This document shows positions 12,842 to 34,123 of a stretch of DNA of 64,000 bases, one piece after another. The first letter of the stretch is position 1, and every line of letters begins with the position of its first letter. Source of the stretch: an uncultured Armatimonadetes bacterium (lineage in GTDB: Bacteria > Armatimonadota > UBA5829 > DTJY01); NCBI GenBank assembly GCA_963717145.1, contig OY970325.1:4928001-4992000 (forward strand). Direction: 5' to 3'. The position numbers were made by a program, and so were the translations under genes. The notes below the pieces were generated by a model, which worked only from the letters and a program-made list of their open reading frames with translations, made no database searches and was not told the DNA's origin.

Positions 12842-14308
12842 GTAACAGTTCACGCTTGGGGATAACGAGTTTGATCAGGCAGGGAAGAGGACAGACTTGC
12901 CTGCGAGCAGTTGCCTGCATGATTCGAGCATGTCCAGACCCCTGACGTGCCATGTGCCAAACAGACTCATGAGCGTCATCTTTGTCTCGGAACCCTTCGC
13001 GCTTCGTGTGCCTCCGCATACCTTGCGGGCGATCACACACGGCCTCAGCGCTCGTTCTGCGCCATTGTTGTCCGACGGTACTTCCGGGTACTCTACGAAC
13101 ATGAACAACTCGTGCAAGCGATCTATGAATCTCTTTGCCAGCGTCTGCTGTGGAGCATCTGAGCCGACATACGGACCTGAGAGCGCCTCTACCTCTTCCT
13201 CGAAGAGTACTCGCTTCCACTTGCGAACCTCCGCCTTCTTGCTCCGGAACTCCTTTGCCCGATCGTAAACACCCTTCACCGCATCCGCCCATGCGATGAC
13301 GCCCGTGTCGTCCGCGTTCCTCTCCTTCAGTTTGTGCAGATCCCTGGCCAGATGTGCCCAGCATATCTGGCGGTCTGCAACTACCGGGTTGTATCCGGCA
13401 TAGCAATCCGTTACCACTACCCCTTCGTAGTCGCCGCCTATCGTTTCCTTCGGGATCTCTCCACTCCGACTCCGCCGGTAGATGAAGTAGCGCACGTTCT
13501 TAGTGGAGAAGGTCCAGATGTATCCGTTCAGCCCATCCTCTCTCCAGCCCGTCTCGTCTGCGTTTATGTATGGGCTTCCACGTACAAGCGAGAGTAGCCG
13601 CTCTTTCTCTTTTTTGCCACAGTCTGCCACCGTGTGCAATATCTCGCTTATCTCTCCCACAGAGAGCTGAAGACCATACAGAGCCTTCAGCAATCCCTGT
13701 ATCGTCCGCTTTGTCATGCGACCTACCGTCGAAAGATACGATATCAGGCTCATCAGGTTCACGCCTACCCGATGCTTGCCTACAACCTGGCCGGAAAGGT
13801 CAACCTTCGGCACATGACTCTTGCCACAGTATCCGCATCTTCTGGCGATGAACCTGTGCTCGACTACGTCCACAGGCACGATGGGGATGTCGATGACTTG
13901 GCGGAGTCTCTTTACCGTGCCCCCTGTGAGCGCTCGGCCGCAGTCCGGACACTTCGAGTGCGCGTGCTCGACTACACGGGTGGGTGTCTCCCGCCTGCGC
14001 ACGAACGACTTCTTGCGCTTCTTTCGTTCAGCTGCCCGGCGCTCTTTGCGGTTCGGCTTCACCCAGTCAGGCACGGATGGGGAACTGCCATCACCGCCGG
14101 AAAGCCTGGCGCGAAGGTCTTCGTTCTCCTTCTCCAGGTCGCCGATACGCGCCACGAGTTGGGGAACTAGACCTTCCAACTGGCTGACCCTGGCCTCAAG
14201 CTCCTCGTATGTCGGCTTGGATTGCTCGCTCACACTCCTTGGTTCGAGACGCTCCCAGCAGGTTCCTTCTTCTTACAGACAAAATAATCCCTAAGCCTGA
14301 ACTGTTAC
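12842..14308 (-). mobile_element. Compact IS66-family element, copy 2, with perfect 8-bp TSD
   Basis: IR GTAACAGTTCA / TGAACTGTTAC; TSD aacatgac at 12834-12841 and 14309-14316. Confidence 0.93.
12875..14233 (-). CDS. IS66 family transposase
   Basis: CPDCG, ADETGW, QICWAH, PSDNNGAERALR. Confidence 0.92.
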   Translation of the reverse strand: MSEQSKPTYEELEARVSQLEGLVPQLVARIGDLEKENEDLRARLSGGDGSSPSVPDWVKPNRKERRAAERKKRKKSFVRRRETPTRVVEHAHSKCPDCGRALTGGTVKRLRQVIDIPIVPVDVVEHRFIARRCGYCGKSHVPKVDLSGQVVGKHRVGVNLMSLISYLSTVGRMTKRTIQGLLKALYGLQLSVGEISEILHTVADCGKKEKERLLSLVRGSPYINADETGWREDGLNGYIWTFSTKNVRYFIYRRSRSGEIPKETIGGDYEGVVVTDCYAGYNPVVADRQICWAHLARDLHKLKERNADDTGVIAWADAVKGVYDRAKEFRSKKAEVRKWKRVLFEEEVEALSGPYVGSDAPQQTLAKRFIDRLHELFMFVEYPEVPSDNNGAERALRPCVIARKVCGGTRSAKGSETKMTLMSLFGTWHVRGLDMLESCRQLLAGKSVLFPA

Positions 14309-14315
14309 AACATGA

Positions 14316-15674
14316 CGAATTGCCTCACCAAAGATGTTACCGAAGTGGATTCGTTGCCTCACGAATGAATGTTACTGTAGAACAGAGGCATGGAGAGGAT
14401 GAGCACTTCAACAACAAGAGAGATCATGAGGCGAAGGAGAAAGGAGTATCTAAGGAGTGGGAAATCGGCCAAGAAGGTGATACTGGACGAGCTGGAGGAG
14501 TTGACCGGTTATCACCGGAAGTCGCTGGTAAGGATGTTTCGAGGAGGCGTGAAGAGGAGGAATGCGCCGATCAGGAGACCTCGAGCTTCGAAGTACGAGG
14601 CGATCCTGCCGCTGCTCAAGGTCCTGTGGGCTACAAGCTTCTACGCCTGCGGGAAGCGGCTTGCTCCGTTCTTGCTGGAACTGGTTTCGGTGATGAAGAG
14701 GTTCGGAGAGATCCGGCCAACCGTGAGTGAGGAGTCGCTGCTTGCCTCGATCAGCGCGGCCACGATAGACAGGATGCTGACGCCGGATCGGGAGTCCATG
14801 AGGGTGAAGGGACGTACGACGACCAAGCCTGGGACGCTGCTTCGGAGCAGGATCGCGATAAGGACCTTCGCCCAGTGGGACGAGAACGAGCCTGGATTCT
14901 TTGAGTTCGACCTGGTAGGCCACTGCGGTGGGACAGCGAGAGGAGAGTTCCTGTATACCCTGAACATGACGGACGTGCACTCCGGCTGGATAGCGCTCGG
15001 CGGTATGAAAGGCAGAGGAGAGCGAGGCACCGTCCTGGCGATCAAATCCGCGTCCGCTCAGCTATCATTCAGGGTCAAAGGGATGGACTCAGACAACGAC
15101 AGCGCATTCATCAACTATCATCTGGCACGGTACTGCCGCCGGGAGAACATATTGCCGACCCGCAGCCGGCCGTACAAGAAGAACGATCAGTGTCATGTGG
15201 AGCAGAAGAACTGGACCGTGGTGAGGCAGTTCATCGGCTACCGGCGATTCGAGACTGATGAGCAGTTGGCCATACTCCAGAAGGTCTATCCGCTGATCAT
15301 GGCCTACCACAACTACTTCTCTCCCATGATGAAGCTTGCCGAGAAGGAACGTGATGGGAGCAAGGTGACCAAGCGCTATACGAAAGCGATGACTCCATAC
15401 CAGAGGCTTCTCATGGCCGACGGATGCATGGACGAGGCTACCAAGGGTCAACTGGCGCGAGAGTATGAATCCACAAACCCGGCCGAACTGCTCAGACGGA
15501 TACGAATGCTGCTCAGACAACTGGAGGACATGCCCACCGAGCAGGCCGATCCCAGGGTACGGTGACCCAGGAGCACGCCTGCTTACGTACCCGGACACGT
15601 AAGACCACTTTCGGTAACAATCCAGATGAGGCAATGATCACCGTTTCGGTAACAAGGATTAATGAGGCAACACG
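14316..15674 (+). mobile_element. ISNCY/IS481-like insertion sequence, copy 2 (diverged relative of copy 1)
   Basis: Ends CGAATTGCCTCA... and ...TGAGGCAACACG with doubled subterminal repeats; direct repeat catga(c) at 14311-14316 and 15675-15680. Confidence 0.87.
14390..15565 (+). CDS. Integrase-core (rve) DDE transposase
   Basis: Colinear homolog of 112..1296 (EFDLVGHCG, DSDNDSAFIN, SRPYKKNDQCHVEQKN). Confidence 0.9.
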   Translation: MERMSTSTTREIMRRRRKEYLRSGKSAKKVILDELEELTGYHRKSLVRMFRGGVKRRNAPIRRPRASKYEAILPLLKVLWATSFYACGKRLAPFLLELVSVMKRFGEIRPTVSEESLLASISAATIDRMLTPDRESMRVKGRTTTKPGTLLRSRIAIRTFAQWDENEPGFFEFDLVGHCGGTARGEFLYTLNMTDVHSGWIALGGMKGRGERGTVLAIKSASAQLSFRVKGMDSDNDSAFINYHLARYCRRENILPTRSRPYKKNDQCHVEQKNWTVVRQFIGYRRFETDEQLAILQKVYPLIMAYHNYFSPMMKLAEKERDGSKVTKRYTKAMTPYQRLLMADGCMDEATKGQLAREYESTNPAELLRRIRMLLRQLEDMPTEQADPRVR

Positions 15675-15680
15675 CATGAC

Positions 15681-17156
15681 GTAACAGTTCACGCTTGGGG
15701 ATAACGAGTTTGATCAGGCGGGGAAGAGGACAGACTTGCCTGCGAGCAGTTGCCTGCAGGACTCGAGCATGTCCAGCCCTCGGACGTGCCATGTGCCAAA
15801 CAGACTCATGAGCGTCATCTTTGTCTCGGAACCCTTCGCGCTTCGTGTGCCTCCGCATACCTTGCGGGCGATCACACACGGCCTCAGCGCTCGTTCTGCG
15901 CCATTGTTGTCCGACGGTACTTCCGGGTACTCTACGAACATGAACAACTCATGCAAGCGATCCGTCAATCTCTTTGCCAGCACCTGCTGTGGAACCTCTA
16001 AGCCGACATACGGACCTGAGAGCGTCTCTACCTCTTCCTCGAAGAGCACTCGCTTCCACTTGCGAACCTCCGCCTTCTTGCTCCGGAACTTCTTTGCCTG
16101 ATCGTAAACACCCTTCACCGCATCCGCCCATGATATGACGTCCGGGTTATCGGCGTTCTTCTCCTTCAGTTTGTGCAGTTCCCTGGCCAGATGTGCCCAG
16201 CATATCTGACGGTCTGCAACTACGGGGTTGTATCCGGCGTAGCAATCCGTTACCACCACCCCTTCGTAGTCGCCGCCTATCGTTTCCTTAGGTATCTCTC
16301 CGCTCCGACTCCGCCGGTAGATGAAGTATCGCACGTTCTTAGTGGAGAAGGTCCAGATGTATCCGTTGAGCCCGTCCTCTCTCCAGCCCGTCTCGTCTGC
16401 GTTTATGTATGGACTTCCGCGTACAAGCGATAGAAGTCCCTTCATCTCGCCTCTGCCACAGCCTGCCACCGTGTGCAATATCTCGCTTATCTCTCCCACA
16501 GAGAGATGAAGACGATACAGAGCCTTCAGCAACCCCTGTATCGTTCGCTTTGTCATACGGCCTACTGTCGAAAGATACGATATCAGGCTCATCAGGTTCA
16601 CGCCTACTCGATGCTTGCCTACAACCTGGCTCGACAGGTCAACCTTCGGCACATGCGCCTTGCCACAGTATCCGCATCTTCTGGCGATGAATCTGTGCTC
16701 GACTATGTCCACAGGCACGATCGGTATATCAATAACCTGGCGGACTCTCTTTACCGTGCCCTCCGTGAGTGCCCGACCGCAGTCCGGACACTTCGAGTGC
16801 GCATGCTCGACTACACGGGTGGGGGTCTCCCGCCTGCGAACGAACGACTTCTGGCGCTTCTTTCGTTCGGCTGCCCGGCGCTCTTTGCGGTTCGGCTTGA
16901 CCCAGTCAGGTATGGGGGTGGAACTGCCGCCACCCGAGAGCTTTGCCTTGAGATCCTCCAGTTCCTTGACGAGACGCTGGATCATCTCCCGCTGCTCCAG
17001 GACAATGCCCACCAATTCTTCTCTTGTCAGACCGTCGAACTCTTCCACACAGGCATGTTCCACCCGCCCGGCCAAGGGTCCTTCCTATTGCAAGCCGACA
17101 ATGTCGGAAAAACTCTCACTGCTCTCGCAAAATGATCCACAAGCCTGAACTGTTAC
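15681..17156 (-). mobile_element. Compact IS66-family element, copy 3
   Basis: IR GTAACAGTTCA at 15681 and TGAACTGTTAC ending at 17156; very similar to copy 2 except at the 5' end; right flank cacatggc matches aacatgac at 6 of 8 positions. Confidence 0.9.
15714..17075 (-). CDS. IS66 family transposase
   Basis: Same motifs as 12875..14233. Confidence 0.92.
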   Translation of the reverse strand: MAGRVEHACVEEFDGLTREELVGIVLEQREMIQRLVKELEDLKAKLSGGGSSTPIPDWVKPNRKERRAAERKKRQKSFVRRRETPTRVVEHAHSKCPDCGRALTEGTVKRVRQVIDIPIVPVDIVEHRFIARRCGYCGKAHVPKVDLSSQVVGKHRVGVNLMSLISYLSTVGRMTKRTIQGLLKALYRLHLSVGEISEILHTVAGCGRGEMKGLLSLVRGSPYINADETGWREDGLNGYIWTFSTKNVRYFIYRRSRSGEIPKETIGGDYEGVVVTDCYAGYNPVVADRQICWAHLARELHKLKEKNADNPDVISWADAVKGVYDQAKKFRSKKAEVRKWKRVLFEEEVETLSGPYVGLEVPQQVLAKRLTDRLHELFMFVEYPEVPSDNNGAERALRPCVIARKVCGGTRSAKGSETKMTLMSLFGTWHVRGLDMLESCRQLLAGKSVLFPA

Positions 17157-17189
17157 CACATGGCGAACAGGGCACTTGGCGGCCCACCG

Positions 17190-18001
17190 GAAACAGTTCA
17201 CGATCGTTGATACTGAAGTTGCTCAGGCGGGATTGGCGGAGAGCGGCTGGGAGACGCCGGACAGCATCCGTCGGCATGACTCCATCGCATCCTCGCCCCG
17301 TAGAAGCCAGGTTCCGAACAGACTCATCGGCCCCATCCGGGTCTCAGACCCCTTCGCCGACCGTGTGCCTCCACTGATCTTCCGAGCCGTCACCGCTGGC
17401 CGAATCGCTCGCTCTGCTGCGTTGTTCTCAGAGGGTACTTCCGGATGCTCCACAAAGACGAACAGCTCCGGCAGGAACCTCTCGATCCGCTGAGCCAGTA
17501 TCCGCTGTGGAACGTCCCGCCTCAGGTATGGCCTGGCGAGCCGATACAACTCTTCCTCGAATGCGATCCGCTGCTCGTGCCGAGCCTTCGACTCCTCGTT
17601 CGAATATCTCTTCGCGCGTCTGTAAACGGCCTTGACCTTGCCGACCCAGATCGCAACCGCTCTATCCCCAGTGTTCGCCTCCACAAGGTCTCGCAAGTCT
17701 CGAAGGTAGTGCACCCAGCACCGCTGATGCCGACCCAAGAGCACGTTGTAGCCGCAGTAGAAGTCGCTTACGACTACACCGCCGTAGTCCTCTCCCAGCA
17801 CACCTTTTGCGACCTCTCCGCTCCGACTCTTGTTGCGAACGAAGTAGCGCACGTTTCGCGTCGAGAAGCTCCAGATGTATCCGTTCTTCCCATCTTCTCG
17901 CCAGCCGGTTTCATCCGCGTTCACCGCAGGGCTTCCCCTGACCGCTTGCAGAAGCTTCTCTACCTCGGGCTTGCCCCTGGAGTCCACCTTCTGGAGTATC
18001 A
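17190..18001 (-). pseudogene. 5'-truncated IS66 element, copy 4 (relative of copy 1)
   Basis: Degenerate end GAAACAGTTCACG at 17190; similarity to the copy 1 transposase begins only at ILQKV (about 18001). Confidence 0.85.
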
Positions 18002-18140
18002 GGCAAAAGCTCAGATCATACAGATCGGAAATGTTTTGAGTTCTCTTGAGGGACATCATTTCCAGCGAGGTGTCGGACCTTACCTACGCTTGGCCTTTCC
18101 TGGAATCGTTGAGTGCACCGATCTAGCTACTCTGGATAAC

Positions 18141-19573
18141 GGGTGCATTCGCGTTGAGTGGGTAGCAAGTAAGGAAGGAGTCTCCTGTAATAGTCGGTAA
18201 CGGTTTGTTGAAGGACAAACATTCCGAAAGGAGACTCCCAGAGAATGCTTACACTTTTGCACACAGACTCCCTCCTTCAGGCCGCTCGCGACTTTGCGCG
18301 CAGCTACATCGATTGCACGGACTTAGGGTCAGCCGAGGAGCGTATTCAGATCCTGGCGCGTCAGATTGCCGGCGCAATGATGAGTGAGGTTGCCGCCAAG
18401 ATGAGCGGAAAGCCCACCTACAAGGGTGTTGGGATAGAATGCGAATGCGGCAGACTGGCCAGGTTCAAGGGATACCGGAAACGCTTCATTCGGACTTTGC
18501 ACGGAGACATAGAGGTCGAGAGGTCATACTACCGTTGCGACCATTGCAGGCGGGGCTACATTCCATGGGACCGCGAGCAGGGGCTGTCCGAGAGAGTATG
18601 GACCGCCAGAGTGAAGGAACTCACCGCCTCGATCTGCGCCGCGCTTCCATATGAAGCAGCCGCAAGGCTGATCGAGCGAACCACGGGTATTGCGATCGAA
18701 GAGAGCAGCGAAGAAGAGATAGTCCGGGATGTTGGGGAATGCCTCCGCCGAGAGGAGCAGGAAGCGATCATCTCTGTGGTAGACACAGGTGAAGAGGTCT
18801 CCTGCGAGGCGACGCCACAGAGGCTCTACATTGGCATAGACGCGGCCAAAGCGCACACCGATGGCCAGTGGCATGACATCAAGACCATGGTGGTATACGA
18901 AGGCGTTCCGGCTGCAGGCAAAGACACGGATACCGTCACCAACTCGCGCTACATAGCGGCGCAAGAGACGAGCGACGAGTTCGGGAGACGGGTATACACC
19001 AGAGCACTGCAAGCCGGCTATGACGGGGCAAAAGAGCGTATAGTGATCGCCGACGGCGCAGACTGGATATGGAGAGAGGTCAGGAATCATCTGCCGGAGA
19101 GCATCAAGATCATCGACTACTGGCATGCCTGTGAGCACATATACGGCTTGGCGCGGACACTCTACGGAGAGGGGAATCCCAAAGGGAAGCGCTGGGCAAA
19201 CGAACACTGCCGGAAGCTTAAAGAGAAGGGGCCGGGGAGTCTGCTTAGAGCCATGAAGCGGCGCAGAGCACGAAACGATTCTGAGAGGGAAGCGCTTCGG
19301 ATCGAGACAGGCTACTTCAGAAAGTACCGCAAGTACATGAACTACCCGGCATACAGGGCCAAGGGGATGATGATAGGCAGCGGTCCGGTGGAAGCGGCGT
19401 GCAAGGTGATAGTAGGCCAGAGGTTAAAGCAAGCCGGGATGCGATGGACGAAGGACGGCGCAGATGCAGTGCTCGCGGTGAGAACTGCCCTCCTAAGCGG
19501 CGAACTGGCTCGGATCGAGCACGCAGCACGTGCCGCCTGAGCCGTGCTCTACCCACTCTGAGGAATTCCACCC
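18141..19573 (+). mobile_element. ISKra4/ISLre2-type (prokaryotic Mutator-like) insertion sequence
   Basis: Imperfect IR GGGTGCATTCGCGTTGAGTGGGTAG / CTACCCACTCTGAGGAATTCCACCC; no TSD seen. Confidence 0.85.
18245..19540 (+). CDS. ISKra4 family (UPF0236-like) transposase
   Basis: CECG...RSYYRCDHC, IADGADWIW, IDYWHA, IGSGPVEAACK..QRLKQAGMRW. Confidence 0.9.
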   Translation: MLTLLHTDSLLQAARDFARSYIDCTDLGSAEERIQILARQIAGAMMSEVAAKMSGKPTYKGVGIECECGRLARFKGYRKRFIRTLHGDIEVERSYYRCDHCRRGYIPWDREQGLSERVWTARVKELTASICAALPYEAAARLIERTTGIAIEESSEEEIVRDVGECLRREEQEAIISVVDTGEEVSCEATPQRLYIGIDAAKAHTDGQWHDIKTMVVYEGVPAAGKDTDTVTNSRYIAAQETSDEFGRRVYTRALQAGYDGAKERIVIADGADWIWREVRNHLPESIKIIDYWHACEHIYGLARTLYGEGNPKGKRWANEHCRKLKEKGPGSLLRAMKRRRARNDSEREALRIETGYFRKYRKYMNYPAYRAKGMMIGSGPVEAACKVIVGQRLKQAGMRWTKDGADAVLAVRTALLSGELARIEHAARAA

Positions 19574-19589
19574 CTCATCTGACGTGACC

Positions 19590-19619
19590 TTGACAACTGA
19601 TGAATGGATAGGTTACGAT
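19590..19619 (+). promoter_or_regulatory. sigma70-type promoter TTGACA-N18-TACGAT upstream of the GT9 array
   Basis: TTGACA at 19590-19595, TACGAT at 19614-19619. Confidence 0.65.
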
Positions 19620-19779
19620 TCGCAAAGCATGTTTGTACGGCGAAGAAGCCAGCGACAGGCCTGTGGCCACCTAATGCTGTGATCTCTCGCACAGAGGTCG
19701 TCTCGTCTGAATGCTATCTTGCAGGGTTGTCCCCTAGGTCTGTTGGGGTCATCGATGGTAGTATACGAAAGAGGGAGGC

Positions 19780-21063
19780 GTGCTAGTGTACTTTGGGTCA
19801 GCGAGGACGTTGATATGGGCATCTGTGGCCCGCATGATCAGACCACTTGTGAGGCTCCATCCTGCTGTACGACATCATACCGCCGTGAAAAACGGAAAGC
19901 GTATTCTAGTTAAGATACACGGTGGCGCCGGCGTCGGTGATGTTATCATGTGTACACCGAGTCTTAGAGCACTGCGGCATGGGCATCCAAATGCCTATAT
20001 TGCATGCATGGTTAGCAAGGCACATAGTCCAGTTCTCCTGGGATGCCCTTATATAGATGAGATTATCAGCGTTGAGCAGGCGGCAGCCTCGAGGCTAAGG
20101 TATGTCACTCAGTTGGCCAAGTACCTAAGGCTGGTAATCCGGCTGGCAGCTTACCATTTCGATTTCAGCGTCGAATTGAAACAAGGCACACCCCCGATGT
20201 TGAGGCAGATTCCTGTGATGGCAGGTATCGAGCATCGTTATGGCCCCCGGGTTACCGACCCGTGGCATTCCCCTGAGGCCTATTCTGTTCGAGTACCTTT
20301 GCTAACAGATAGCACGCAAGTCGTCAGGTTCATGGAGGTCGCGGTCGCTGCCGGCGGCATACCGGATGGTGAGGAAACTGAATGCTATGTATCTCTCGAA
20401 TGGAGAAAGAGCGTTGCTAACCTCTTGGGACCGGTCGATTCTCGGCCGCTCATCGTTGTTCATCCTGGCAGCAATGACTGCTGTAGACGATGGCCAGAAG
20501 CATCGTTTGCCAAAGTCATCAATGACCTGCAAGCTGACCAGCCGGTCCGCATTCTGCTTATAGGAGTCACAGCAGAGATTGCTGTGATCAATCATATCGC
20601 TGTAGAATGCCGGTGCGCGGTCGAGACTATCGTATCAGTGCTCGATCTGGGTGAGTTGCAGGCGCTGATAGAGCGAGCTGATCTGCTTCTTTGCAACGAC
20701 TCAGGGCCGATGCACATGGCAATAGCTTTGGGCACTCCCGTTGTGGCTGTATTCGGTCCGACGAATCCCGACAAGATTGTAGGACTCAATCCACCAGACT
20801 GGTGCCGTCTTATCCGAGTACCAGCAGATTGCCCTCCGCGGTCAGAATGCCCCGTCTATGCCTGCATGTCGGGGAAGAGACGCCGTCAGGTCTTACCGAT
20901 ATGCAGCACGACAGACGCAGTATGTGTGGATGCCGTCAGTGTACAACCAGTGCTCGAAGCCGCCAGGGGACTCCTGGCATGCAAGCGGAGTTCTACAGAG
21001 CGGTTGTCCCCTAGGTCTGTTGGGGTCATCGATGTTAGTATACGAAAGAAGGAGGCGTGCTAG
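19780..21063 (+). CDS. Glycosyltransferase family 9 (heptosyltransferase-like), copy 1
   Basis: GDVIMCTPSLRAL, HPG...RRWP, ADLLLCNDSGPMHMAIALGTPVVAVFGPT; true start may be the GTG 6 nt further on. Confidence 0.92.
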   Translation: MLVYFGSARTLIWASVARMIRPLVRLHPAVRHHTAVKNGKRILVKIHGGAGVGDVIMCTPSLRALRHGHPNAYIACMVSKAHSPVLLGCPYIDEIISVEQAAASRLRYVTQLAKYLRLVIRLAAYHFDFSVELKQGTPPMLRQIPVMAGIEHRYGPRVTDPWHSPEAYSVRVPLLTDSTQVVRFMEVAVAAGGIPDGEETECYVSLEWRKSVANLLGPVDSRPLIVVHPGSNDCCRRWPEASFAKVINDLQADQPVRILLIGVTAEIAVINHIAVECRCAVETIVSVLDLGELQALIERADLLLCNDSGPMHMAIALGTPVVAVFGPTNPDKIVGLNPPDWCRLIRVPADCPPRSECPVYACMSGKRRRQVLPICSTTDAVCVDAVSVQPVLEAARGLLACKRSSTERLSPRSVGVIDVSIRKKEAC

Positions 21064-22340
21064 TGTACTTTGGGTCAGCGAGGACGTTGATATGGGCATC
21101 TGTGGCCCGCATGATCAGACCACTTGTGAGGCTCCATCCTGCTGTACGACATCATACCGCCGTGAAAAACGGAAAGCGTATTCTAGTTAAGATACACGGT
21201 GTCGCCGGTGCCGGTGATGTTATCATGTGTACACCCAGCCTTAGGGCGCTGCGACGTGGGCATCCAAATGCCTATATTGCATGCATGGTTAGCAAGGCAC
21301 ATAGTCCAGTTCTCCTGGGATGCCCTTATATAGATGAGATTATCAGCGTTGAGCAGGCGGCAGCCTCGAGGCTAAGGTATGTCACTCAGTTGGCCAAGTA
21401 CCTAAGGCTGGTAATCCGGCTGGCAGCTTACCATTTCGATTTCAGCGTCGAATTGACGCAAGGCGCACCCCCCATGCTGAGGCAGATTCCTGTGATGGCA
21501 GGTATCGAGCATCGTTATGGCCCCCGGGTTACCGACCCGTGGCATTCGCCCGAGGCCTATTCTGTTCGAGTACCTTTGCCAACAGATAGCACGCAAGTCG
21601 TCAGGTTCATGGAGATCGCGGTCGCTGCCGGCGGCATACCGGATGGTGAGGAAACTGAATGCTATGTATCTCTCGAATGGAGAAAGAGCGTTGCTAACCT
21701 CTTGGGACCGATCGATTCTCGGCCGCTCATCGTTGTTCATCCTGGCAGCCGGGACTGCTGTAGACGATGGCCAGAAGCATCGTTTGCCAAAGTCATCAAT
21801 GACCTGCAAGCTGACCAGCCGGTCCGCATTCTGCTTATAGGAGTCACAGCAGAGATTGCTGTGATCAATCATATCGCTGCAGAATGCCGGGCGCCGGTCG
21901 AGACTATCGTATCAGTGCTCGATCTGGGTGAGTTGCAGGCGCTGATAGAGCGAGCTGATCTGCTTCTTTGCAACGACTCAGGGCCGATGCACATGGCAAT
22001 AGCTTTGGGCACTCCCGTTGTGGCTGTATTCGGTCCGACGAATCCCGACAAGATTGTAGGACTCAATCCACCAGACTGGTGCCGTCTTATCCGAGTACCA
22101 GCAGATTGCCCTCCGCGGTCAGAATGCCCCGTCTATGCCTGCATGTCGGGGAAGAGACGCCGTCAGGTCTTACCGATATGCAGCACGACAGACGCAGTAT
22201 GTGTGGATGCCGTCAGTGTACAACCAGTGCTCGAAGCCGCCAGGGGACTCCTGGCATGCAAGCGGAGTTCTACAGAGCGGTTGTCCCCTAGGTCTGTTGG
22301 GGTCATCGATGGTAGTATACGAAAGAAGGAGGCGTGCTAG
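21057..22340 (+). CDS. Glycosyltransferase family 9, copy 2
   Basis: As copy 1; start overlaps the previous stop. Confidence 0.92.
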   Translation: MLVYFGSARTLIWASVARMIRPLVRLHPAVRHHTAVKNGKRILVKIHGVAGAGDVIMCTPSLRALRRGHPNAYIACMVSKAHSPVLLGCPYIDEIISVEQAAASRLRYVTQLAKYLRLVIRLAAYHFDFSVELTQGAPPMLRQIPVMAGIEHRYGPRVTDPWHSPEAYSVRVPLPTDSTQVVRFMEIAVAAGGIPDGEETECYVSLEWRKSVANLLGPIDSRPLIVVHPGSRDCCRRWPEASFAKVINDLQADQPVRILLIGVTAEIAVINHIAAECRAPVETIVSVLDLGELQALIERADLLLCNDSGPMHMAIALGTPVVAVFGPTNPDKIVGLNPPDWCRLIRVPADCPPRSECPVYACMSGKRRRQVLPICSTTDAVCVDAVSVQPVLEAARGLLACKRSSTERLSPRSVGVIDGSIRKKEAC

Positions 22341-23803
22341 TGTACTTTGGGTCAGCGAGGACGTTGATATGGGCATCTGTGGCCCGCATGATCAGACCAC
22401 TTGTGAGGCTCCATCCTGCTGTACGACATCATACCGCCGTGAAAAACGGAAAGCGTATTCTAGTTAAGATACACGGTGGCGCCGGTGCCGGTGATGTTAT
22501 CATGTGTACACCCAGCCTTAGGGCGCTGCGACGTGGGCATCCAAATGCCTATATTGCATGCATGGTTAGCAAGGCACATAGTCCAGTTCTCCTGGGATGC
22601 CCTTATATAGATGAGATTATCAGCGTTGAGCAGGCGGCAGCCTCGAGGCTAAGGTATGTCACTCAGTTGGCCAAGTACCTAAGGCTGGTAATCCGGCTGG
22701 CAGCTTACCATTTCGATTTCAGCGTCGAATTGTCACATGGCGTACCCCCCATGCTGAGGCAGATTCCTGTGATGGCAGGTATCGAGCATCGTTATGGCCC
22801 CCGGGTTACCAACCAATACCATTCTCCTGAGGCCTATTCTGTTCGAGTACCTTTGCTAACAGATAGCACGCAAGTCGTCAGGTTCATGGAGGTCGCGGTC
22901 GCTGCCGGCGGCATACCGGATGGTGAGGAAACTGAATGCTATGTATCTCTCGAATGGAGAAAGAGCGTTGCTAACCTCTTGGGACCGGTCGATTCTCGGC
23001 CGCTCATCGTTGTTCATCCTGGCAGCAATGACTGCTGTAGACGATGGCCAGAAGCATCGTTTGCCAAAGTCATCAATGACCTGCAAGCTGACCAGCCGAT
23101 CCGCATTCTGCTTATAGGGGTCACAGCAGAGATTGCTGTGATCAATCATATCGCTGCAGAATGCCGGGCGCAGGTCGAGACTATCGTATCAGTGCTCGAT
23201 CTGGGTGAGTTGCAGGCGCTGATAGAGCGAGCTGATCTGCTTCTTTGCAACGACTCAGGGCCGATGCACATGGCAATAGCTTTAGGCACTCCCGTTGTGG
23301 CTGTATTCGGTCTGACGAATCCCGACAAGATTGTAGGACTCAATCCACCAGACTGGTGCCGTCTTATCCGAGTACCAGCAGATTGCCCTCCGCGGTCAGA
23401 ATGCCCCGTCTATGCCTGCATGTCGGAGAAGAGACGCCGTCAGGTCTTACCGATATGCAGCACGACAGACGCAGTATGTGTGGATGCCGTCAGTGTACAA
23501 CCAGTGCTCGAAGCCGCCAGGGGACTCCTGGCATGTAAGCGGAGTTCTACACCCGTGTACCCCTTGATCAGGTCAGACCGCGCATTCCTTCACGATTTCG
23601 GAGTCAGCGACAGTTCTTGCCTCGCTAACATCAACGCCGATTCTGCCGCTAAGAGCCAAGCATCCACTTCGAGTATCCTCCGCTCATGCAGACAGCATCA
23701 TCTTAACCAGGAACAGATCGCCATCGGGATGGCTGTGAGCTCTTCGGGGGTTCGCTCCGCGTGTGAGCCGCTCTGGACCGGCTGGCGCATTACTCCCTGG
23801 TGA
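22334..23803 (+). CDS. Glycosyltransferase family 9, copy 3 (different C-terminal tail)
   Basis: As copy 1 up to CKRSST, then reads into unique sequence. Confidence 0.88.
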   Translation: MLVYFGSARTLIWASVARMIRPLVRLHPAVRHHTAVKNGKRILVKIHGGAGAGDVIMCTPSLRALRRGHPNAYIACMVSKAHSPVLLGCPYIDEIISVEQAAASRLRYVTQLAKYLRLVIRLAAYHFDFSVELSHGVPPMLRQIPVMAGIEHRYGPRVTNQYHSPEAYSVRVPLLTDSTQVVRFMEVAVAAGGIPDGEETECYVSLEWRKSVANLLGPVDSRPLIVVHPGSNDCCRRWPEASFAKVINDLQADQPIRILLIGVTAEIAVINHIAAECRAQVETIVSVLDLGELQALIERADLLLCNDSGPMHMAIALGTPVVAVFGLTNPDKIVGLNPPDWCRLIRVPADCPPRSECPVYACMSEKRRRQVLPICSTTDAVCVDAVSVQPVLEAARGLLACKRSSTPVYPLIRSDRAFLHDFGVSDSSCLANINADSAAKSQASTSSILRSCRQHHLNQEQIAIGMAVSSSGVRSACEPLWTGWRITPW

Positions 23804-24001
23804 GCAGGTCGCCAGGGAAAGGTACCGCCGGAAAGAGCGGTGAACGGAGCACGAAAAGCGGAGACAAGACCAGAGATCACATGAGACTGAATTGGTTTCG
23901 AAGAAGGCACGTTCGCATGTTCTCAGCCGGCGTGGGCTACTTGAGTACCGCCCGATGCTGCCCAGGAAGACCTGTCTCGCAAAAGTACGATATGTCGCCA
24001 C

Positions 24002-24031
24002 TTGACGGATGATTTGCCTCTGCAGTAAGAT
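24002..24031 (+). promoter_or_regulatory. Possible sigma70 promoter TTGACG-N18-TAAGAT
   Basis: About 80 bp upstream of the FkbM gene. Confidence 0.45.
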
Positions 24032-24109
24032 AGATCATATTACTGCTGGAAGAGCTAAGCGGTTTGGGTTCTCGAATGGTTTCGCACTATGAGCGCATGA
24101 GATGATTTC

Positions 24110-25030
24110 ATGAGGTTGCCAGGTCTCCATATTGTACAACAGTTTGCTTGCATCCTAGGCTACGTGTTTGCGGGTGTCTATGACAGAGTTCGCATAGTGG
24201 CTTACTGGGTGCGCGGCCGGAGGAATGGGATCGGTGCGATGGAACTGATCGGGAGGGTGGTCGCTAGGTCGGCCAAGCACAGAGCCAAACGCATAGCCAA
24301 GCGCAGGATACGGAGGCTAGGTGTTACCAGCGGGACGCGGGTAGGCGAATTGTATCACGTCGTGCATCTGCACGAGACAGAACGCCCGCTCTACTGGCCT
24401 TGTGAGCTTGGGCTGGACTGTCTGTATATGACTGTGAACGAGTGTTGTTGCCGGGATCACTGGCACTACTATGAGACTTCTGAGACGCGAGTACATCCGG
24501 AAGACGTCGTGTTGGACTGTGGTGCCGCAGAAGGGCTTTTCAGTCTGCAAGTGCAGCCCAGATGTAAGAGAGTCTTCTGCGTAGAGCCTCTGCCCATGTT
24601 CGTGCGGTCTCTACAGATGACGTTCGATTCTTGTCGCAATGTGACCATCGTACCGGTGGCATTGTCGGACGTGGAGGAAGAGGCACGCCTTTATCAGAAC
24701 GGAGCGGCCTCGTGCATCACGGCATGTTCGCGGGAAGGTTCATTCGACATTCCGATCAAAGTGACGACCATCGATTCGCTGTTCGGAAACACACCGGTCA
24801 CATACATAAAGGCGGATGTAGAAGGCTCCGAGTTGCAGTTGCTAAGAGGAGCAGAACAGACAATCCGGAGGTGGCGCCCCAAGATCGCAATAGCAGCATA
24901 CCATAGCAGTGCGGATGCAGAGCTGCTTTCCAAGTTCCTCACGGAGCTCAATCTGGGTTACAAAGTCCTGCTGAGGGGGATATGCCCGGAAGCGGGAAAA
25001 CCGATAATGCTTCATGCATGGGTCGACTGA
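24110..25030 (+). CDS. FkbM family SAM-dependent methyltransferase
   Basis: VLDCGAAEGLFS, VEP, VALSD, YIKADVEGSELQLLRGA, KIAIAAYH. Confidence 0.88.
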   Translation: MRLPGLHIVQQFACILGYVFAGVYDRVRIVAYWVRGRRNGIGAMELIGRVVARSAKHRAKRIAKRRIRRLGVTSGTRVGELYHVVHLHETERPLYWPCELGLDCLYMTVNECCCRDHWHYYETSETRVHPEDVVLDCGAAEGLFSLQVQPRCKRVFCVEPLPMFVRSLQMTFDSCRNVTIVPVALSDVEEEARLYQNGAASCITACSREGSFDIPIKVTTIDSLFGNTPVTYIKADVEGSELQLLRGAEQTIRRWRPKIAIAAYHSSADAELLSKFLTELNLGYKVLLRGICPEAGKPIMLHAWVD

Positions 25031-25112
25031 CAGTCTGTCCTGTGACTGAGCGCTAATGCGCCACCCGTCGGCAGAGAACCCGATATCGATCCGCTGCAGG
25101 TGCCAACCCGAG

Positions 25113-25713
25113 GTAAGAGCTCACGATCATTGATGATCCGGGCAGGTGCACTGGAGCGGGCTGTCGAATGGTAGGTTGTGAACGGTCTCGGCAGCCTATC
25201 AGGAGAAGAACTGTCGATCTAGTCTAGGAGCAGCATCAGGCTGTCCTGGAGTTGCGTGAAGCCGTGGACACCCTTGCGGAGAGCGTGGGGATGCTCGAGA
25301 AGGAGAAGGACGATCTGTCGTCCAAGCCCAGCGGCTGCAGCAGGACGATTCCTGCCTGGGCAAAGCCGAACCCGGCCCGAGCGCGAGAAGAAGGATCGCA
25401 ATAAGCGGTAGAAGTTGTTTCTGCGCCTGATGGAGACTCCGGCTGAGACACCTGTGTTGGTCAAATGCCCGAAGCTCCCTCTGAGAGCGAGACTGCAGGG
25501 CGAGCGATCTGGTCTGCGGTAACGGCAAGGGAGGTAAGTGGAGGGACACGATCGGCGAAGGGGTCTGGGGCCTGGATGAGGCTCATGGGTTTGTTTGGGA
25601 CATGGCTTCTATGAGAGGCCAAGAGCCAGTGTAGTCATGCTGCAGGATGCTTTCCGGCGCTCTCTACCCGTCCTGTCTGACCAGCTTCTCCATCAAGCAT
25701 CGTGAACTGTTTA
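25113..25713 (+). mobile_element. Internally deleted, decayed IS66 derivative (about 600 bp, both ends retained)
   Basis: Left end gtaagagctcacgatcattgat and following sequence match the 5' end of IS66 copy 1; right end catcgtgaactgttta matches its 3' end. Confidence 0.78.
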
Positions 25714-25719
25714 GAGATA

Positions 25720-25810
25720 TTGACAATTCTGGGAAAGCGGCATAGAATGGGAGCAAGTCACCGGCCACTTTCCACTACGGCTGGGACAAGCTCAGCCAAG
25801 ATAGCCGATG
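25720..25810 (+). promoter_or_regulatory. sigma70 promoter TTGACA-N17-TAGAAT plus conserved leader (cassette copy 1)
   Basis: TTGACA at 25720, TAGAAT at 25743; closely similar to the reverse complement of 55660-55749. Confidence 0.8.
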
Positions 25811-25981
25811 AGGCAAGAAGGAATAGCTTTCGAGTGTGACGAAGCGGTATGTTTGCGAGCGGTCGAAAGCTATGCTGGTTACAAGTAGCATTGTCAGTTC
25901 GGGGCAGCTCTAGTCCACACTGCCGAACGACGTGTTTGAAGAATCCAGACGAGACCAGCAGGAGAGGGAGATTAAGAAGTA

Positions 25982-27034
25982 ATGAAGGAACCGAATCGTC
26001 TGCGGATCTGGCTGTCAGTCCTGTTGTCGGGGAGCTTGGTGGTCACAGGATTGTTCCTGTTCTGCCCACCTAGTTTATTCCATTCACGGCATCTTGGCCA
26101 TAGCTATCTGATGGAGCAGCCTCGGTATTTGACCGCAGTGGCCGGTAAGTCTGGCAGACTTGCAGTGAGCGTTCAAACTGGCGGCAAGGTGCGTATATAT
26201 GTGGAGCAGGGGCATGCCAAGCTCATTCCTGTAACATCTGGCAACTTAGATGCAGACCCTGCTTGGGACCCGGCGGGCACGCGTATTGCATACGTATCAT
26301 TAGGCCGGCACGGCAAACTGGCACTCCGGGTGCTCAGCATGACAGACGGCACAGACTCCGTACTCCTGGAACAACCCCTGATATCGCAGCCGTGCTGGTC
26401 GCACGATGGTATGACTATCCTCTTCTTGAGAAGCCGGCCGGATGTGGCAGGCCAATCGACCATATGTGCAGTTGATCTTGAGACAAAACGGACAATCTCT
26501 CTCGCAGAGACAACCTATAACAGGCCTCAGGCATGGGATGTGCTGGGAGAAGACAGGATAGCCTATACGTACAATGATGCGGTGTGGATAAGGCCTATCC
26601 GGAAACCTGCAGAGCGATTGCCGATCACCTTCACCACCCCGTGCATGGTTTCAGCAGCCCCAAATAATAGGCTGATGTTTGTCTGCGAGTCCATAACAGC
26701 CAACGATAAGCGCGCCATATTGGTTGATCTGCAACCACGGCGATCGAAGCAGCTCTATGAAGGTTACATTCGACATGCACTCTGGTCCCCCTCGGGCAGA
26801 ATATTGGCAATCGCCATCAAGTATGAGACCCTGCTGTTCAGGGCCAATAAGACGGCCACCACCACAGATGAGTGGCAACTGGCTTCCACGCTCAAGGGAA
26901 TCGCTGTATGTTGGCGTTCCGACTCGAAGCTCGTGTTGATCCGGCCTACCAAAGGAAGTCCGCACTTCTTGGAGGAAGAGGATCTGCAGTCGCAAGGTAT
27001 CACTAGCTTTGCACCATATACGGCTAAGCCTTAA
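25982..27034 (+). CDS. Membrane-anchored TolB-like (PD40/WD40) beta-propeller protein
   Basis: N-terminal TM; DPAWDPAGTRIAY, PCWSHDG and WSPSGR repeats. Confidence 0.7.
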   Translation: MKEPNRLRIWLSVLLSGSLVVTGLFLFCPPSLFHSRHLGHSYLMEQPRYLTAVAGKSGRLAVSVQTGGKVRIYVEQGHAKLIPVTSGNLDADPAWDPAGTRIAYVSLGRHGKLALRVLSMTDGTDSVLLEQPLISQPCWSHDGMTILFLRSRPDVAGQSTICAVDLETKRTISLAETTYNRPQAWDVLGEDRIAYTYNDAVWIRPIRKPAERLPITFTTPCMVSAAPNNRLMFVCESITANDKRAILVDLQPRRSKQLYEGYIRHALWSPSGRILAIAIKYETLLFRANKTATTTDEWQLASTLKGIAVCWRSDSKLVLIRPTKGSPHFLEEEDLQSQGITSFAPYTAKP

Positions 27035-27213
27035 AGCGGCCTTGCCCATGAGCGGTCTCTGTGTAAATCTATTCTGGTAGCACCTTTGGACATATAGTGG
27101 GGCCATATGATGAGAGCTACTTGTCATATTGTGAGGACTGTAGACCGTCGATTTGGCAATATGCGGAAAGCAATCTTGTGCGTGTCCGTCCGCACGCAGA
27201 GAGGATGTGACTT

Positions 27214-28050
27214 ATGTCTGCTGGTATCATTAGTCGGTGGCGGCGCAAGTTGGCTTGGACTCCTGTGGCAGTAGCCATCTTGTTCGTGGTAGTGTCCATT
27301 GTACAGATGGAAGGGGGTAGCGACACAACCCGTATTTTGATTATGTGCACGGACCTCAGAGGGCCTCTGATTACATCCGGACCCGCCGATAAGATTTCTC
27401 ACTATAGGTCAGATATTATGCTTATCGTAGAGATAAGAGAGAAAGAAAAGAGAATTGTTGTTACACAGGTTCCCAGGGATACTATGGCCTATATCTGCCC
27501 AGAGTTGGGATTAGATAAGGTCAACTCTAGCGTTTTTCTTGCTGGGGCACGAGAGAGCCGCGACGTTGTGGGTAAGTTGATGGGTAACGAGATCCAGCAT
27601 TATATTGTGCTTAGCGTACCGGAGAGCCTGCAGTTTGTCAAGATCATCGGAGGGATAACGATACCCACGGATTCCGGTGGAGGTTTGACCAGCGGAGACC
27701 CCAAGTCGGTTTCTTCAGATCAGAATGGCCAGAAGTCTATTCTGCTCAAGGATCAGGCAGCCCTTGATTATGTGATGATTCGTCCAGGTTCTGACGTGGA
27801 GAGAGAGAAGAACCAGCAGCAGTTCTTAAAGGCCCTCATCAAGCAATGCCGCAAGTTGAACGCTGAACAGGTCTGCAGACTGGCTCTATGGGCCTGGAAT
27901 CAGGATGGTGATATGTCGCCAGTACAGATGGCCAGGTATGGCCGTCTGTTTCTAAGGAGCGACCGGGAGTTCCGGTCGCTGGATACTTCTGCTCTCTACC
28001 TGAATGGAACTTCGTATCTACTCGCAGTGAAACAAGATCAAAGCCCCTAG
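27214..28050 (+). CDS. LCP (LytR-CpsA-Psr) family cell-envelope phosphotransferase
   Basis: TM then ILIMCTD, RSDIML, VPRDT, DKVN, SDVEREKNQQQFLKAL. Confidence 0.85.
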   Translation: MSAGIISRWRRKLAWTPVAVAILFVVVSIVQMEGGSDTTRILIMCTDLRGPLITSGPADKISHYRSDIMLIVEIREKEKRIVVTQVPRDTMAYICPELGLDKVNSSVFLAGARESRDVVGKLMGNEIQHYIVLSVPESLQFVKIIGGITIPTDSGGGLTSGDPKSVSSDQNGQKSILLKDQAALDYVMIRPGSDVEREKNQQQFLKALIKQCRKLNAEQVCRLALWAWNQDGDMSPVQMARYGRLFLRSDREFRSLDTSALYLNGTSYLLAVKQDQSP

Positions 28051-28079
28051 CAGGGGATGTCTGTTGTGAAGGAAAGGGG

Positions 28080-29945
28080 TTGTTCATAATGCTTCTTAGG
28101 GCTGTCCATGTGTTATCAAGAAGTCTCCGCTCACGGACCGGAAGGCATCGCTACTGCTTGCCAGACAAAATGTGTTCGGATTGGGTGCACAGTTCTCCAC
28201 TGTCTGCTATTGCTGTAATATGCCTACTGCTGCTCAGTTCCGTCCAGTGTGCTGGGGCGGGGGAGCCAGAATCGGCAGAGCTGTCTTCCGAAGCACCTAA
28301 GCTTTACTCGCCGTTCGATGAGCCTAAGCCGAAGATACCCGCAGAGATCCTCTCCGACATACGCCTTGACACGAAGGTTACGATCTCAGTGAAGAGCAAG
28401 AACATGAAAGATCTCTTCTGGGAGATCCGTAAACGGACCGGCGTGAACATCGTCGCCGCGAAGGATCTGTCGGGTGAGAGGGCGATAGTTTTTTGCCACG
28501 ACAAACCCCTGCGCGACGTTATGACAGAGATCTCCGCGCTCTACGGGTACTACTGGCTGGCCAAGGGGCAAAAGGGTGCCTGGACCTACGAACTCTTCGA
28601 GGACATGATCCACGCCAAGCGAAGGGATCAGGTGCGAGACTCTCAGGAAGCGGCACAGGTCGACGCGCTCCTCGACTGCATCGATCAGGCCACCAGGGCG
28701 ATAAAGAGTGATGCCGCGCTCGAGCAGTTGCGCCGGACTAATCCGCGTCTGCACCTAACGGTGGCGGACCCCGGCAAGAGGGAACTGCTCAATCTCATCA
28801 ACCTCATGGACAAGCCGACCATTCGCGGTTTTCTGAATGACGTCGGGATAGCGTGGGACTTTCCCGATATGTCGGCCGAGATGCAGTCCGGAGTCCTCAA
28901 AGCTATCAACGGGGAGTATGGTGTGCGCGAAGGGGCGGGGTACGAGCCGTTGACCGCCGATCGGATGCAGAAGGCCTACGTGAGATTCAAGCGCTGGCGG
29001 ATGAACCTCTTCACGCCTCCTCACGTCATGCTCGTGGTGTCGGTCCCTGCAAAGGAGGATGGAACCGGCGGGGGGAGGCGGATGTGCATGTGGACGGATT
29101 ATGACGAAGGAGAGCCTGATCTGCTCAGCATGCCGGAGCAGCCCGCGGGGAGAGTGATCGGCGATCCGCTGCCGAGCGACGTCAAGATCACTGTCGAGAA
29201 GAAGCACGAGGTGTTCAACTATGGCGCGATCCTGGTCCAAGACGTGCTGGAGGCGGTTGCCAGGCAGGCGAAACTCAATGTCGTCGCCGACTACTATTTC
29301 CAGGAGACGGAGCTGCCCGCTTGTTCCGATGAGCCGCTGGACAAACTGGTCTCCGAGGTATGCCTCAAGATGGATTATACCTGCCAGGTGGAGAAGGATA
29401 CACTGCGCTTCAAATTCAACAAGTGGTATCTGCAGCCGCTGCCCGAGGAGCCGCCATCGGCACTTCAGGAACTCTGGTGGAGAAAGGTAAAGGAAACCGG
29501 CGGCCTGTCGCTCGATGATCTTCTGGATATCGCGTGTCTGCGGGATAAGCAGACATTCTGGGCAGGGTTCCGGTTTATACCCCAGGCACAGCAGGCAAGG
29601 TTGTTCCCCAGGACTGCGAGGATGGTGCGAATGCTCGGCTCGGCGCTCGAGGATGAAGCGTGTACTCCGGCGGGTCTGCCTGTCTCCAAACTCGACGCGG
29701 ACCAGTTCAGCCGCATCGCCGACTGGGCCGGCGTCATGGGGATTAAGGAGACACTAGAGGGCCTGCTCAAATGTACGATCAAGATCAAGAAATCGGGTGA
29801 TCCTGTGAACAGCCTCCAGTTCATGCTTGTGCTTCCGGACGGCACGCCTCGCGGCGTGCCGCTGAATGCGAGACTCGAACGCCTTGACGAGAAAGAACGC
29901 CGCACACTTGCCGCGGGAAAGGGCGGCAGAGCTGGCATCGGATAG
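28080..29945 (+). CDS. Secreted hypothetical protein with repeated secretin/STN-like N domains
   Basis: Signal-like hydrophobic stretch; two 'KVTI...DL...I..TGVNIVA' type segments; start uncertain. Confidence 0.5.
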   Translation: MFIMLLRAVHVLSRSLRSRTGRHRYCLPDKMCSDWVHSSPLSAIAVICLLLLSSVQCAGAGEPESAELSSEAPKLYSPFDEPKPKIPAEILSDIRLDTKVTISVKSKNMKDLFWEIRKRTGVNIVAAKDLSGERAIVFCHDKPLRDVMTEISALYGYYWLAKGQKGAWTYELFEDMIHAKRRDQVRDSQEAAQVDALLDCIDQATRAIKSDAALEQLRRTNPRLHLTVADPGKRELLNLINLMDKPTIRGFLNDVGIAWDFPDMSAEMQSGVLKAINGEYGVREGAGYEPLTADRMQKAYVRFKRWRMNLFTPPHVMLVVSVPAKEDGTGGGRRMCMWTDYDEGEPDLLSMPEQPAGRVIGDPLPSDVKITVEKKHEVFNYGAILVQDVLEAVARQAKLNVVADYYFQETELPACSDEPLDKLVSEVCLKMDYTCQVEKDTLRFKFNKWYLQPLPEEPPSALQELWWRKVKETGGLSLDDLLDIACLRDKQTFWAGFRFIPQAQQARLFPRTARMVRMLGSALEDEACTPAGLPVSKLDADQFSRIADWAGVMGIKETLEGLLKCTIKIKKSGDPVNSLQFMLVLPDGTPRGVPLNARLERLDEKERRTLAAGKGGRAGIG

Positions 29946-34051: not shown

Positions 34052-34123
34052 ATTGCGATATCTGTGCTCTCGAGTTCACGCATACAGACCTAGTCCGCGG
34101 AGTTGGCTGCTGTCAAGGAAACC

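Follow-up and report, generated by a model that had tools for sequence, protein, structure and literature searches.

A tandem array of three near-identical GT9 glycosyltransferase genes whose differences are concentrated in short islands, most of them on the predicted acceptor side

The window analysed here is a stretch of 64,000 nucleotides (nt) from the genome of an uncultured Armatimonadetes bacterium, a soil organism (contig OY970325.1, positions 4,928,001 to 4,992,000 of the forward strand), and our subject is a tandem array of genes for family 9 glycosyltransferases (GT9) at window 19725-23551, which corresponds to 4,947,725-4,951,551 in genome coordinates. The array consists of three direct units with a period of 1277 bp, as an earlier note on this DNA had described it. 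A search of the genome (a single contig of 5,366,867 bases) with the whole unit returned three matches, all three of them in the array itself, and no further DNA copy. The layout of the array and its expression signals is as follows.

19725..21001, + strand: repeat unit 1, 1277 bp; a 55-nt leader, then GT9 copy 1 through codon 407
21002..22278, + strand: repeat unit 2, 1277 bp; 98% identity to unit 1
22279..23551, + strand: repeat unit 3; 1273 nt in common with the other units, then unique right flank
19786..21063, + strand: GT9 copy 1, 425 amino acids (aa); alternative GTG start at 19780; last 21 residues from the unit 2 leader
21063..22340, + strand: GT9 copy 2, 425 aa; start shares 1 nt with the copy 1 stop (TAGTG)
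22340..23803, + strand: GT9 copy 3, 487 aa; own 82-residue tail, without counterpart in the nearest homologue
19774..19778, 21051-21055 and 22328-22332, + strand: Shine-Dalgarno motif GGAGG, 7 nt before the second GTG; the latter two inside the tail of the preceding cistron
20998..21001 and again 22275-22278, + strand: GAGC filler at the junctions, preceded by the unit end TTCTACA and followed by the unit start GGTTGTCC
19590..19619, + strand: promoter-like site TTGACA-18-TACGAT, 10/12 consensus match; precedes the array and is not part of the repeated unit

Read from the first GTG, the open reading frames (ORFs) run over 19780-21063, 21057-22340 and 22334-23803 and encode 427, 427 and 489 aa, all intact and without frameshifts; the third extends beyond the repeat to 23803, which corrects the earlier note. 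Judged from the sequence, the second GTG is the likelier start of each copy, since it lies 7 nt after GGAGG and shares a single nucleotide with the TAG stop, and the public protein cluster of this gene uses the second GTG too, giving 425 aa. The TAGTG arrangement bears out the earlier statement that each start overlaps the preceding stop. Since 1277 is not divisible by three, copies 1 and 2 continue for 21 residues into the following leader, where they end at TAG.

A promoter scan of 19300-24300 found six sites against 4.0 +/- 2.1 in shuffled sequence, and the site at 19590..19619, which is a consensus match only, is the one strong candidate promoter for all three cistrons. Separate promoters for each unit were considered and rejected: the matches inside the units score 9/12, sit within ORF starts and are not above chance. 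On the + strand between the GT9 copies a scan for terminator-like sites found none. In this arrangement one upstream promoter would give a single mRNA for three cistrons, each with its own GGAGG, and the overlapping stops and starts would cause the three proteins to be made together.

The copies differ at 42 of the 1218 coding columns that they share, which amounts to 27, 33 and 25 bases and to 12, 14 and 15 of 406 residues in the pairwise comparisons. That the differences are clustered, as had been noted, is clear from their spacing: 18 gaps between variable columns measure 3 nt or less where 4.1 are expected, and none of 10,000 random placements was as extreme. Five islands, together 114 nt long, hold 33 of the variable columns, and the remaining 1104 nt, to which we refer as the background, hold the other 9. 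All five peptide differences listed in the earlier note are present in the translations. The islands lie at 146-200, 400-421, 478-495, 694-696 and 824-839 in coding-nt numbering; the window coordinates below refer to copy 1, with 1277 to be added for copy 2 and 2554 for copy 3.

19925..19979, + strand: island A, 9 variable columns in 55 nt; residues 47-65; loop before the invariant Gly51-Asp52
20179..20200, + strand: island B, 8 variable columns in 22 nt; KQGT / TQGA / SHGV, three versions
20257..20274, + strand: island C, 7 variable columns in 18 nt; DPW / DPW / NQY
20473..20475, + strand: island D, one codon in which all 3 bases differ, AAT / CGG / AAT, that is, N / R / N
20603..20618, + strand: island E, 6 variable columns in 16 nt; VECRCA / AECRAP / AECRAQ

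The background resembles recent point mutation of this genome, while the islands look like much older sequence. Transitions and transversions stand at 9:0 in the background against 18:16 in the islands (Fisher P = 0.016), the uncorrected synonymous divergence (pS) reaches 0.30-0.42 within islands and stays at 0-0.011 outside them, and the seven codons with two- or three-base differences between some pair of copies are all found inside islands. Six of the changes in island A are synonymous, and codon 164 in island C occurs in three synonymous states (TCC/TCG/TCT). Elsewhere in this genome, three young tandem duplications carry nothing but scattered transitions (7/7, 2/2 and 2/2), so that the islands differ from its ordinary mutation pattern.

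Along the genes the label of the odd-one-out copy switches in blocks, with 15 runs against 28.8 expected and a minimum of 18 in 20,000 permutations, and Sawyer-type tests for concordant runs gave P = 0.0001, 0.006 and 0.10 for the three pairs. When each island version with 15-nt flanks was searched against the genome with blastn-short for an ectopic donor, only chance matches of 12 to 22 nt were found (best E = 0.019). Because their synonymous divergence is high, the patches appear to be old sequence spared by homogenisation and not fresh mutation, and the idea in the earlier note of an array "diversifying" by new mutation has to be given up. A near-identical background combined with short, synonymously divergent peaks, which characterises concerted evolution with peaks (Teshima-Innan), is what is found here. 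On the evidence of the sequence pattern, we regard the array as a "peak of divergence" case, a set of old paralogues that gene conversion has homogenised, and not as a recent amplification. Such a peak in converting duplicates is an accepted sign of a selected site, according to the available part of PMC3924837. The opsin-type peaks treated in the same excerpt are alike in that near-identical tandem paralogues carry short divergent stretches at specificity residues (PMC3924837), and in that synonymous divergence within the peaks greatly exceeds that of the background; unlike them, the array is bacterial, has three copies and five peaks of 3-55 nt, and its ongoing conversion is read from the pattern alone.

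The junctions suggest how the array was built. In unit columns 1274-1277 units 1 and 2 have GAGC and unit 3 has CCCG, and the GAGC filler is absent from both the left and the right flank of the array. Since the same filler stands at both junctions, a single illegitimate duplication, creating the junction TTCTACA-GAGC-GGTTGTCC, would have come first, and the third copy would have been added by homologous unequal exchange. Gene conversion between copies or unequal crossing-over would then hold about 90% of each gene almost identical, with five short patches spared homogenisation and retaining the old divergence. Elsewhere in the genome young tandem duplications, each comprising most of a gene, are found at 4171354-4173488 (unit of 1067 nt, 2 differences) and 179326-181683 (unit of 1221 nt, 7 differences), in each case with transitions only and with the gene family unassigned; in the former a shortened first ORF runs into the beginning of the next one, as happens in the GT9 array. 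At 939543-942571 and 945117-947425 there are almost perfect tandem repeats, with one period of 609 nt (about five copies) and one of 912 nt, and their ORFs have no Pfam match.

Recombinational shuffling and copy-number change of the array, both raised in the earlier note, are plausible. It is a considerably bolder step, and one that we think improbable, to see the array as a built-in recombination cassette for surface-glycan variation. The patches are present in 2, 3, 2, 2 and 3 versions and separated by about 250-380 nt of perfect identity, and RecA-mediated exchange would in that case yield chimeric enzymes (up to 72 combinations per position) as well as copy-number variants. The identical background would be maintained as a recombination substrate, and a clonal population would show changing glycan linkages, for example as a means of escaping phages or grazers. 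Two other sources of variation were examined and rejected. For a diversity-generating retroelement, no reverse-transcriptase family was found among the 53 window ORFs scanned (E up to 1e-5), and the changes involve all four bases, with an odd copy that varies by island, and are not adenine-specific. For phase variation at simple repeats, Tandem Repeats Finder returned 0 rows for 15000-30000.

The assignment to GT9 is firm: Pfam PF01075 (Glyco_transf_9) matches the copies with 103.9, 111 and 107 bits against a cut-off of 22 (E = 1.2e-29, 7.5e-32 and 1.3e-30). An AlphaFold2 model of copy 2, calculated from an alignment of 95 sequences, has a predicted local distance difference test score (pLDDT) of 86 and a predicted template-modelling score (pTM) of 0.87, with the neo-tail 408-425 below pLDDT 50. 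The best solved structures found by Foldseek are 3tov (Veillonella GT9), 1psw (HepII) and 6dfe/2gt1/2h1h (HepI), with E values of 1e-22 to 1e-14. The model thus predicts a GT-B fold of two Rossmann-like domains that is nearest to solved GT9 enzymes, as expected for an inverting GT9 transferase, and Pfam, model and Foldseek matches agree with the fold proposed in the earlier note. HepI (WaaC; 2GT1, 2H1H, 6DFE), HepII (WaaF; 1PSW) and 3TOV resemble the array copies in family, fold, the invariant Gly-Asp with the catalytic Asp and the conserved donor-site motifs (equivalents of KxWP, Glu222 and D-S/T-G); identity between the copies and the solved GT9 structures is 18-22%.

Gly51-Asp52 is invariant in 95/95 aligned sequences, including all three copies, and its aspartate is the equivalent of the catalytic HepI Asp13. 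In the printed alignments HepI Lys192, Glu222 and Asp261 correspond to Arg234, Glu264 and Asp305 (within NDSGPMH), which are the same in the three copies. A simulation preprint on HepI, in the portion available, assigns the role of base to Asp13 and has the donor bound by Thr187-188, Lys192, Glu222 and Met242 (10.1101/2021.06.16.448588), and the catalytic role of Asp13 is also supported in the accessible text of PMC5713226. Since the catalytic aspartate and the donor-site residues are common to the three copies, they would be expected to use the same nucleotide sugar, possibly ADP-heptose. The array protein stays below the NCBIfam cut-offs for heptosyltransferases I, II and III, with 85.7 against 185.3 for TIGR02193, 97 against 134.6 for TIGR02195 and 108.3 against 170.2 for TIGR02201.

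In 425-aa numbering the copies vary at 19 residues, namely 47, 50, 65, 132, 133, 135, 158, 159, 160, 173, 185, 217, 230, 254, 273, 277, 278, 325 and 363. Loops that follow a strand make up 59 of 404 residues and hold 10 of the 19 (P = 1e-4), or 6 of 12 events when neighbouring changes are counted as clusters (P = 0.004); the other nine comprise five among the 100 remaining coil residues and four helical positions, with strands unaffected. Family conservation at the variable positions averages 0.40 against 0.45 overall (P = 0.42), so these are not the least conserved columns. For placing the residues relative to the substrates we relied on their secondary-structure position in the model and on homology to HepI, which gives the following alignment-based equivalences.

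Residue 50 (island A): HepI Met11, before Gly12-Asp13
Residues 132-135 (island B): HepI Gln94-Val97, before Lys98; loop after strand 127-130
Residues 158-160 (island C): HepI Arg120-Glu121-Pro122; loop after strand 150-154
Residue 230 (island D): HepI Arg189; first loop of the C-terminal domain
Residues 273-278 (island E): HepI Glu231-Ala234; helix end and loop before a strand, on the distal side of the C-terminal domain

Acceptor salt-bridge partners in HepI are given by the same preprint excerpt as Arg60, Arg63, Lys98, Lys/Arg120 and Arg189 (10.1101/2021.06.16.448588). By this alignment four of the five islands, A to D, are predicted to fall on the acceptor side and E is not. The earlier proposal that the changes sit in acceptor loops therefore stands for islands A-D, which are on or beside the equivalents of HepI Met11/Gly12/Asp13, Lys98, Arg120 and Arg189, and fails for island E and residue 65. 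The basic residues with which HepI binds phosphate are replaced in the array: Lys98 by Pro136, Arg120 by Asp/Asp/Asn158 and Arg189 by Asn/Arg/Asn230, a comparison that covers these three residues because the equivalents of Arg60 and Arg63 lacked confident placement. These replacements make Kdo2-lipid A an unlikely acceptor.

What would be the use of three such enzymes side by side? The reading towards which we lean, by a modest degree, is that they are co-expressed GT9 isoenzymes with one donor and different acceptors. [quoted passage not shown] This would be the logic of HepI to HepIV in miniature: in that series, as far as the available sections of PMC5713226 describe it, one donor is used by all, the nearly constant C-terminal domain binds it, and the N-terminal domain varies with and sets the acceptor. 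HepI to HepIV are old, dispersed paralogues, whereas the array copies are neighbours at 97-98% identity.

Several observations weigh against this specialisation of acceptor choice. Island E and residue 65 are off the cleft side, in distal helix-to-strand parts of the model. The mapping onto HepI was made at about 20% identity and read from printed alignments, with the register of island B uncertain by one residue, and loops in general tolerate change. The changes had been called mostly amino-acid changing, which is true of the raw count (19 of 32 variable codons) and not of the rate per site: the ratio of nonsynonymous to synonymous divergence (dN/dS) takes values of 0.39, 0.46 and 0.75 in the pairwise comparisons, and for the islands by themselves it is 0.13-0.19 (A) and 0.43-0.89 (B-E). 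The codon-level comparison that the earlier note had proposed thus gave no partition above 1 and no signal of positive selection, which is accordingly not demonstrated. Background changes number six nonsynonymous to three synonymous, which fits omega values of 0.3-1 and is unlikely at 0.1 (P = 0.007); such a near-neutral ratio suits redundancy as well as specialisation. Copy 3 alone has leucine in place of proline in the GPTNP motif (residue 325, window 23312-23314), where 73 of 92 homologues have proline, and the change may be mildly damaging. Finally, the islands might have been preserved without any selection, if mismatches at such density are enough to prevent recombination.

These same observations, from the low dN/dS in every partition and the 6:3 background to the altered GPTNP motif and the distal position of island E and residue 65, speak for an array that is a neutral remnant. 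In that account redundant copies are kept for dosage or by chance, with no difference in specificity, and the patches persist only since mismatches packed so closely prevent strand exchange or go unrepaired, the loops being simply the fastest-drifting parts of old paralogues. It also has on its side that the genome readily makes tandem duplications and that neighbouring radical SAM genes show plain conversion, with a core of 264 consecutive identical residues. What makes us regard it as unlikely, although a serious contender, is the geometry of the islands. Island D is a single codon, changed in all three bases and placed between 38 and 69 identical bases, which is too small to block exchange; islands of 3-55 nt, with identical stretches of 253-380 nt between them, would need conversion tracts to end repeatedly beside the same loops; and four of the five coincide with acceptor-contact positions of HepI. 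As tandem duplications generally behave, recombination should eliminate direct repeats of this kind (1.3 kb, 98% identity) if any copy were dispensable, which we also count against a neutral remnant.

The main features on either side of the array in the window are listed here.

112-2847 and 12875-15565: blocks of rve-type and IS66-type transposase genes, flanking a radical SAM / aminotransferase / SAM-decarboxylase cluster
5531-7000 and 7180-9027, - strand: pair of B12-binding radical SAM genes; proteins 89% and DNA 94.7% identical, with 14 gap openings
15714-19540: two more IS66 genes, one of them truncated, and a UPF0236-type transposase gene
24110..25030, + strand: FkbM-family methyltransferase gene, directly downstream of the array
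25112-25611: IS66-like fragments in inverted orientation, just beyond the FkbM gene
34103-35781: two adjacent alpha/beta hydrolase genes, with sub-cut-off matches to exosortase A system-associated hydrolases 1 and 2; they adjoin an ABC-2 exporter pair

The FkbM gene is followed by genes for an LCP-family glycopolymer transferase, a GT2 enzyme and an ABC-2 type exporter pair, and this gene set would fit a surface-glycan pathway. The lipid A and core genes are elsewhere: in genome coordinates lpxC is at 4,588,794, waaA at 4,596,050, two GT9 genes at 4,598,506-4,601,848 and rfaE domain I at 4,608,406, which places the array about 350 kb from the waaA cluster and outside the lipid A and core genes. 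One waaA-adjacent GT9 gene scores 157.5 with the HepI model, higher than the array copies and yet below the cut-off. Of the ADP-heptose genes, rfaE domain I reaches 348.5 against a cut-off of 345 and a GmhA-like match stays below threshold (103 against 209). Together lpxC, waaA, the two waaA-adjacent GT9 genes and rfaE domain I indicate that the host makes lipopolysaccharide and has other candidates for inner-core synthesis.

The genome as a whole has a guanine plus cytosine (GC) content of 60.6%; in window 1-26000 the value is 54.8% and in the array 54.1%, which is consistent with a horizontally acquired island. Transposase genes of the IS66, rve and UPF0236 types are present upstream of the array and IS66-like fragments downstream, so that the GT9 genes and the methyltransferase gene are bracketed by insertion sequences (IS). 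The radical SAM pair of the same island had been likened to the array in architecture, a comparison that does not survive inspection: its genes are separated by a 180-nt intergenic gap, and it is the core that is identical, while the N- and C-terminal ends have diverged. As read from the alignment, gene conversion between two old paralogues has made that core identical, which is the reverse of what the GT9 genes show, and conversion between tandem paralogues is therefore active in this island.

No close relative of the array came to light. Among 41 genomes of the family and class the best match outside the genome has 30% identity; a word-indexed search of a collection of 5.8 billion protein sequences gave 39% at best, and an exhaustive search of 1.84 billion representative proteins gave 40%, with the next at 37%. 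Scans of genome contigs and of metagenome contigs (80 loci each) produced nothing above 45%, a value reached over a partial match. In a search of sequencing runs two soil metagenomes alone responded, their shares of the sampled words being 0.10 and 0.08, and no RNA run did. Mapped on copy 3 and its right flank, the soil runs gave four 151-nt unitigs, none of which crosses a junction or the flank. One of them, at 22508-22658 (depth 5.7), has 7 mismatches to copy 3 over its 151 positions; three of these (22591, 22592 and 22597) fall in a 7-nt stretch, and the unitig may represent an environmental allele with differences that are clustered again. A second, at 23370-23520, is identical to the array.

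It may be asked on this basis whether the patches were imported, that is, whether a recent triplication later had patches pasted in from diverged alleles of other strains, the result being mosaic alleles of a hypervariable surface-glycan gene. The foreign character of the island, with its GC of 54.1% against 60.6% and IS on both sides, would suit such an origin, as would the three clustered differences in the soil unitig. There is also a parallel in Helicobacter pylori, where, in the part of PMC6892558 that is available, the surface-glycan glycosyltransferase loci HP1105 and JHP0562/0563 occur as tandem alleles or duplications, have one protein half conserved and the other polymorphic, and give rise by recombination to occasional hybrids and to glycan diversity. 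The H. pylori loci belong to other glycosyltransferase families and vary between strains over half a gene (PMC6892558), in contrast to the GT9 array, which varies within one genome, in three copies and in a few loop codons. We judge an import of the patches to be very doubtful: several separate donors would be required to account for the three versions of island B and the three states of codon 164, no donor allele or close relative appeared in the protein, genome and metagenome searches, where the nearest protein has 40% identity, and the metagenome evidence consists of a single 151-nt unitig at a depth of 5.7.

The soil reads bear equally on whether strain variants of a one- or two-copy gene were laid out by the assembler as three tandem copies. 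That the unitigs bridge no junction, and that the estimated contamination of the genome is 4.89%, would allow it. We nonetheless hold such an artefact to be highly improbable: the genome is one 5.37-Mb contig, both junctions have the same non-templated GAGC, the three ORFs are intact, the differences respect codons and some sites have three states, and an error of collapse or expansion would not give a clean 1277-bp periodicity with distinct copies. The array is, we conclude, a real three-gene tandem family of orphan GT9 enzymes in a low-GC, IS-rich envelope-glycan island.

In the full-text literature on tandem or duplicated heptosyltransferase paralogues we found no GT9 array described, and in that on gene conversion in tandem glycosyltransferases with a bearing on acceptor specificity there was no bacterial case among the matches listed. 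The process is already known; the object is a three-copy operon of near-identical GT9 genes with differences mostly on predicted acceptor loops. Should the copies prove to be a neutral remnant, the array would be an ordinary tandem family undergoing conversion. If, as in the reading with one donor and different acceptors, the copies differ only in acceptor choice, the array would be a natural specificity experiment, with GT9 enzymes 12-15 of 406 residues apart, and the concentration of most differences in four loops that align with the acceptor side of HepI would be a pointer to the residues of acceptor specificity. To our knowledge, the GT9 family has no acceptor-bound structure beyond HepI. 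Heptosyltransferases are studied as antibiotic targets (PMC5713226, text available in part). Escape from conversion at functional sites has been documented mainly in animals, as far as the accessible part of PMC3924837 goes, and the array would then add a clean bacterial three-copy case of escape from conversion only at functional sites.

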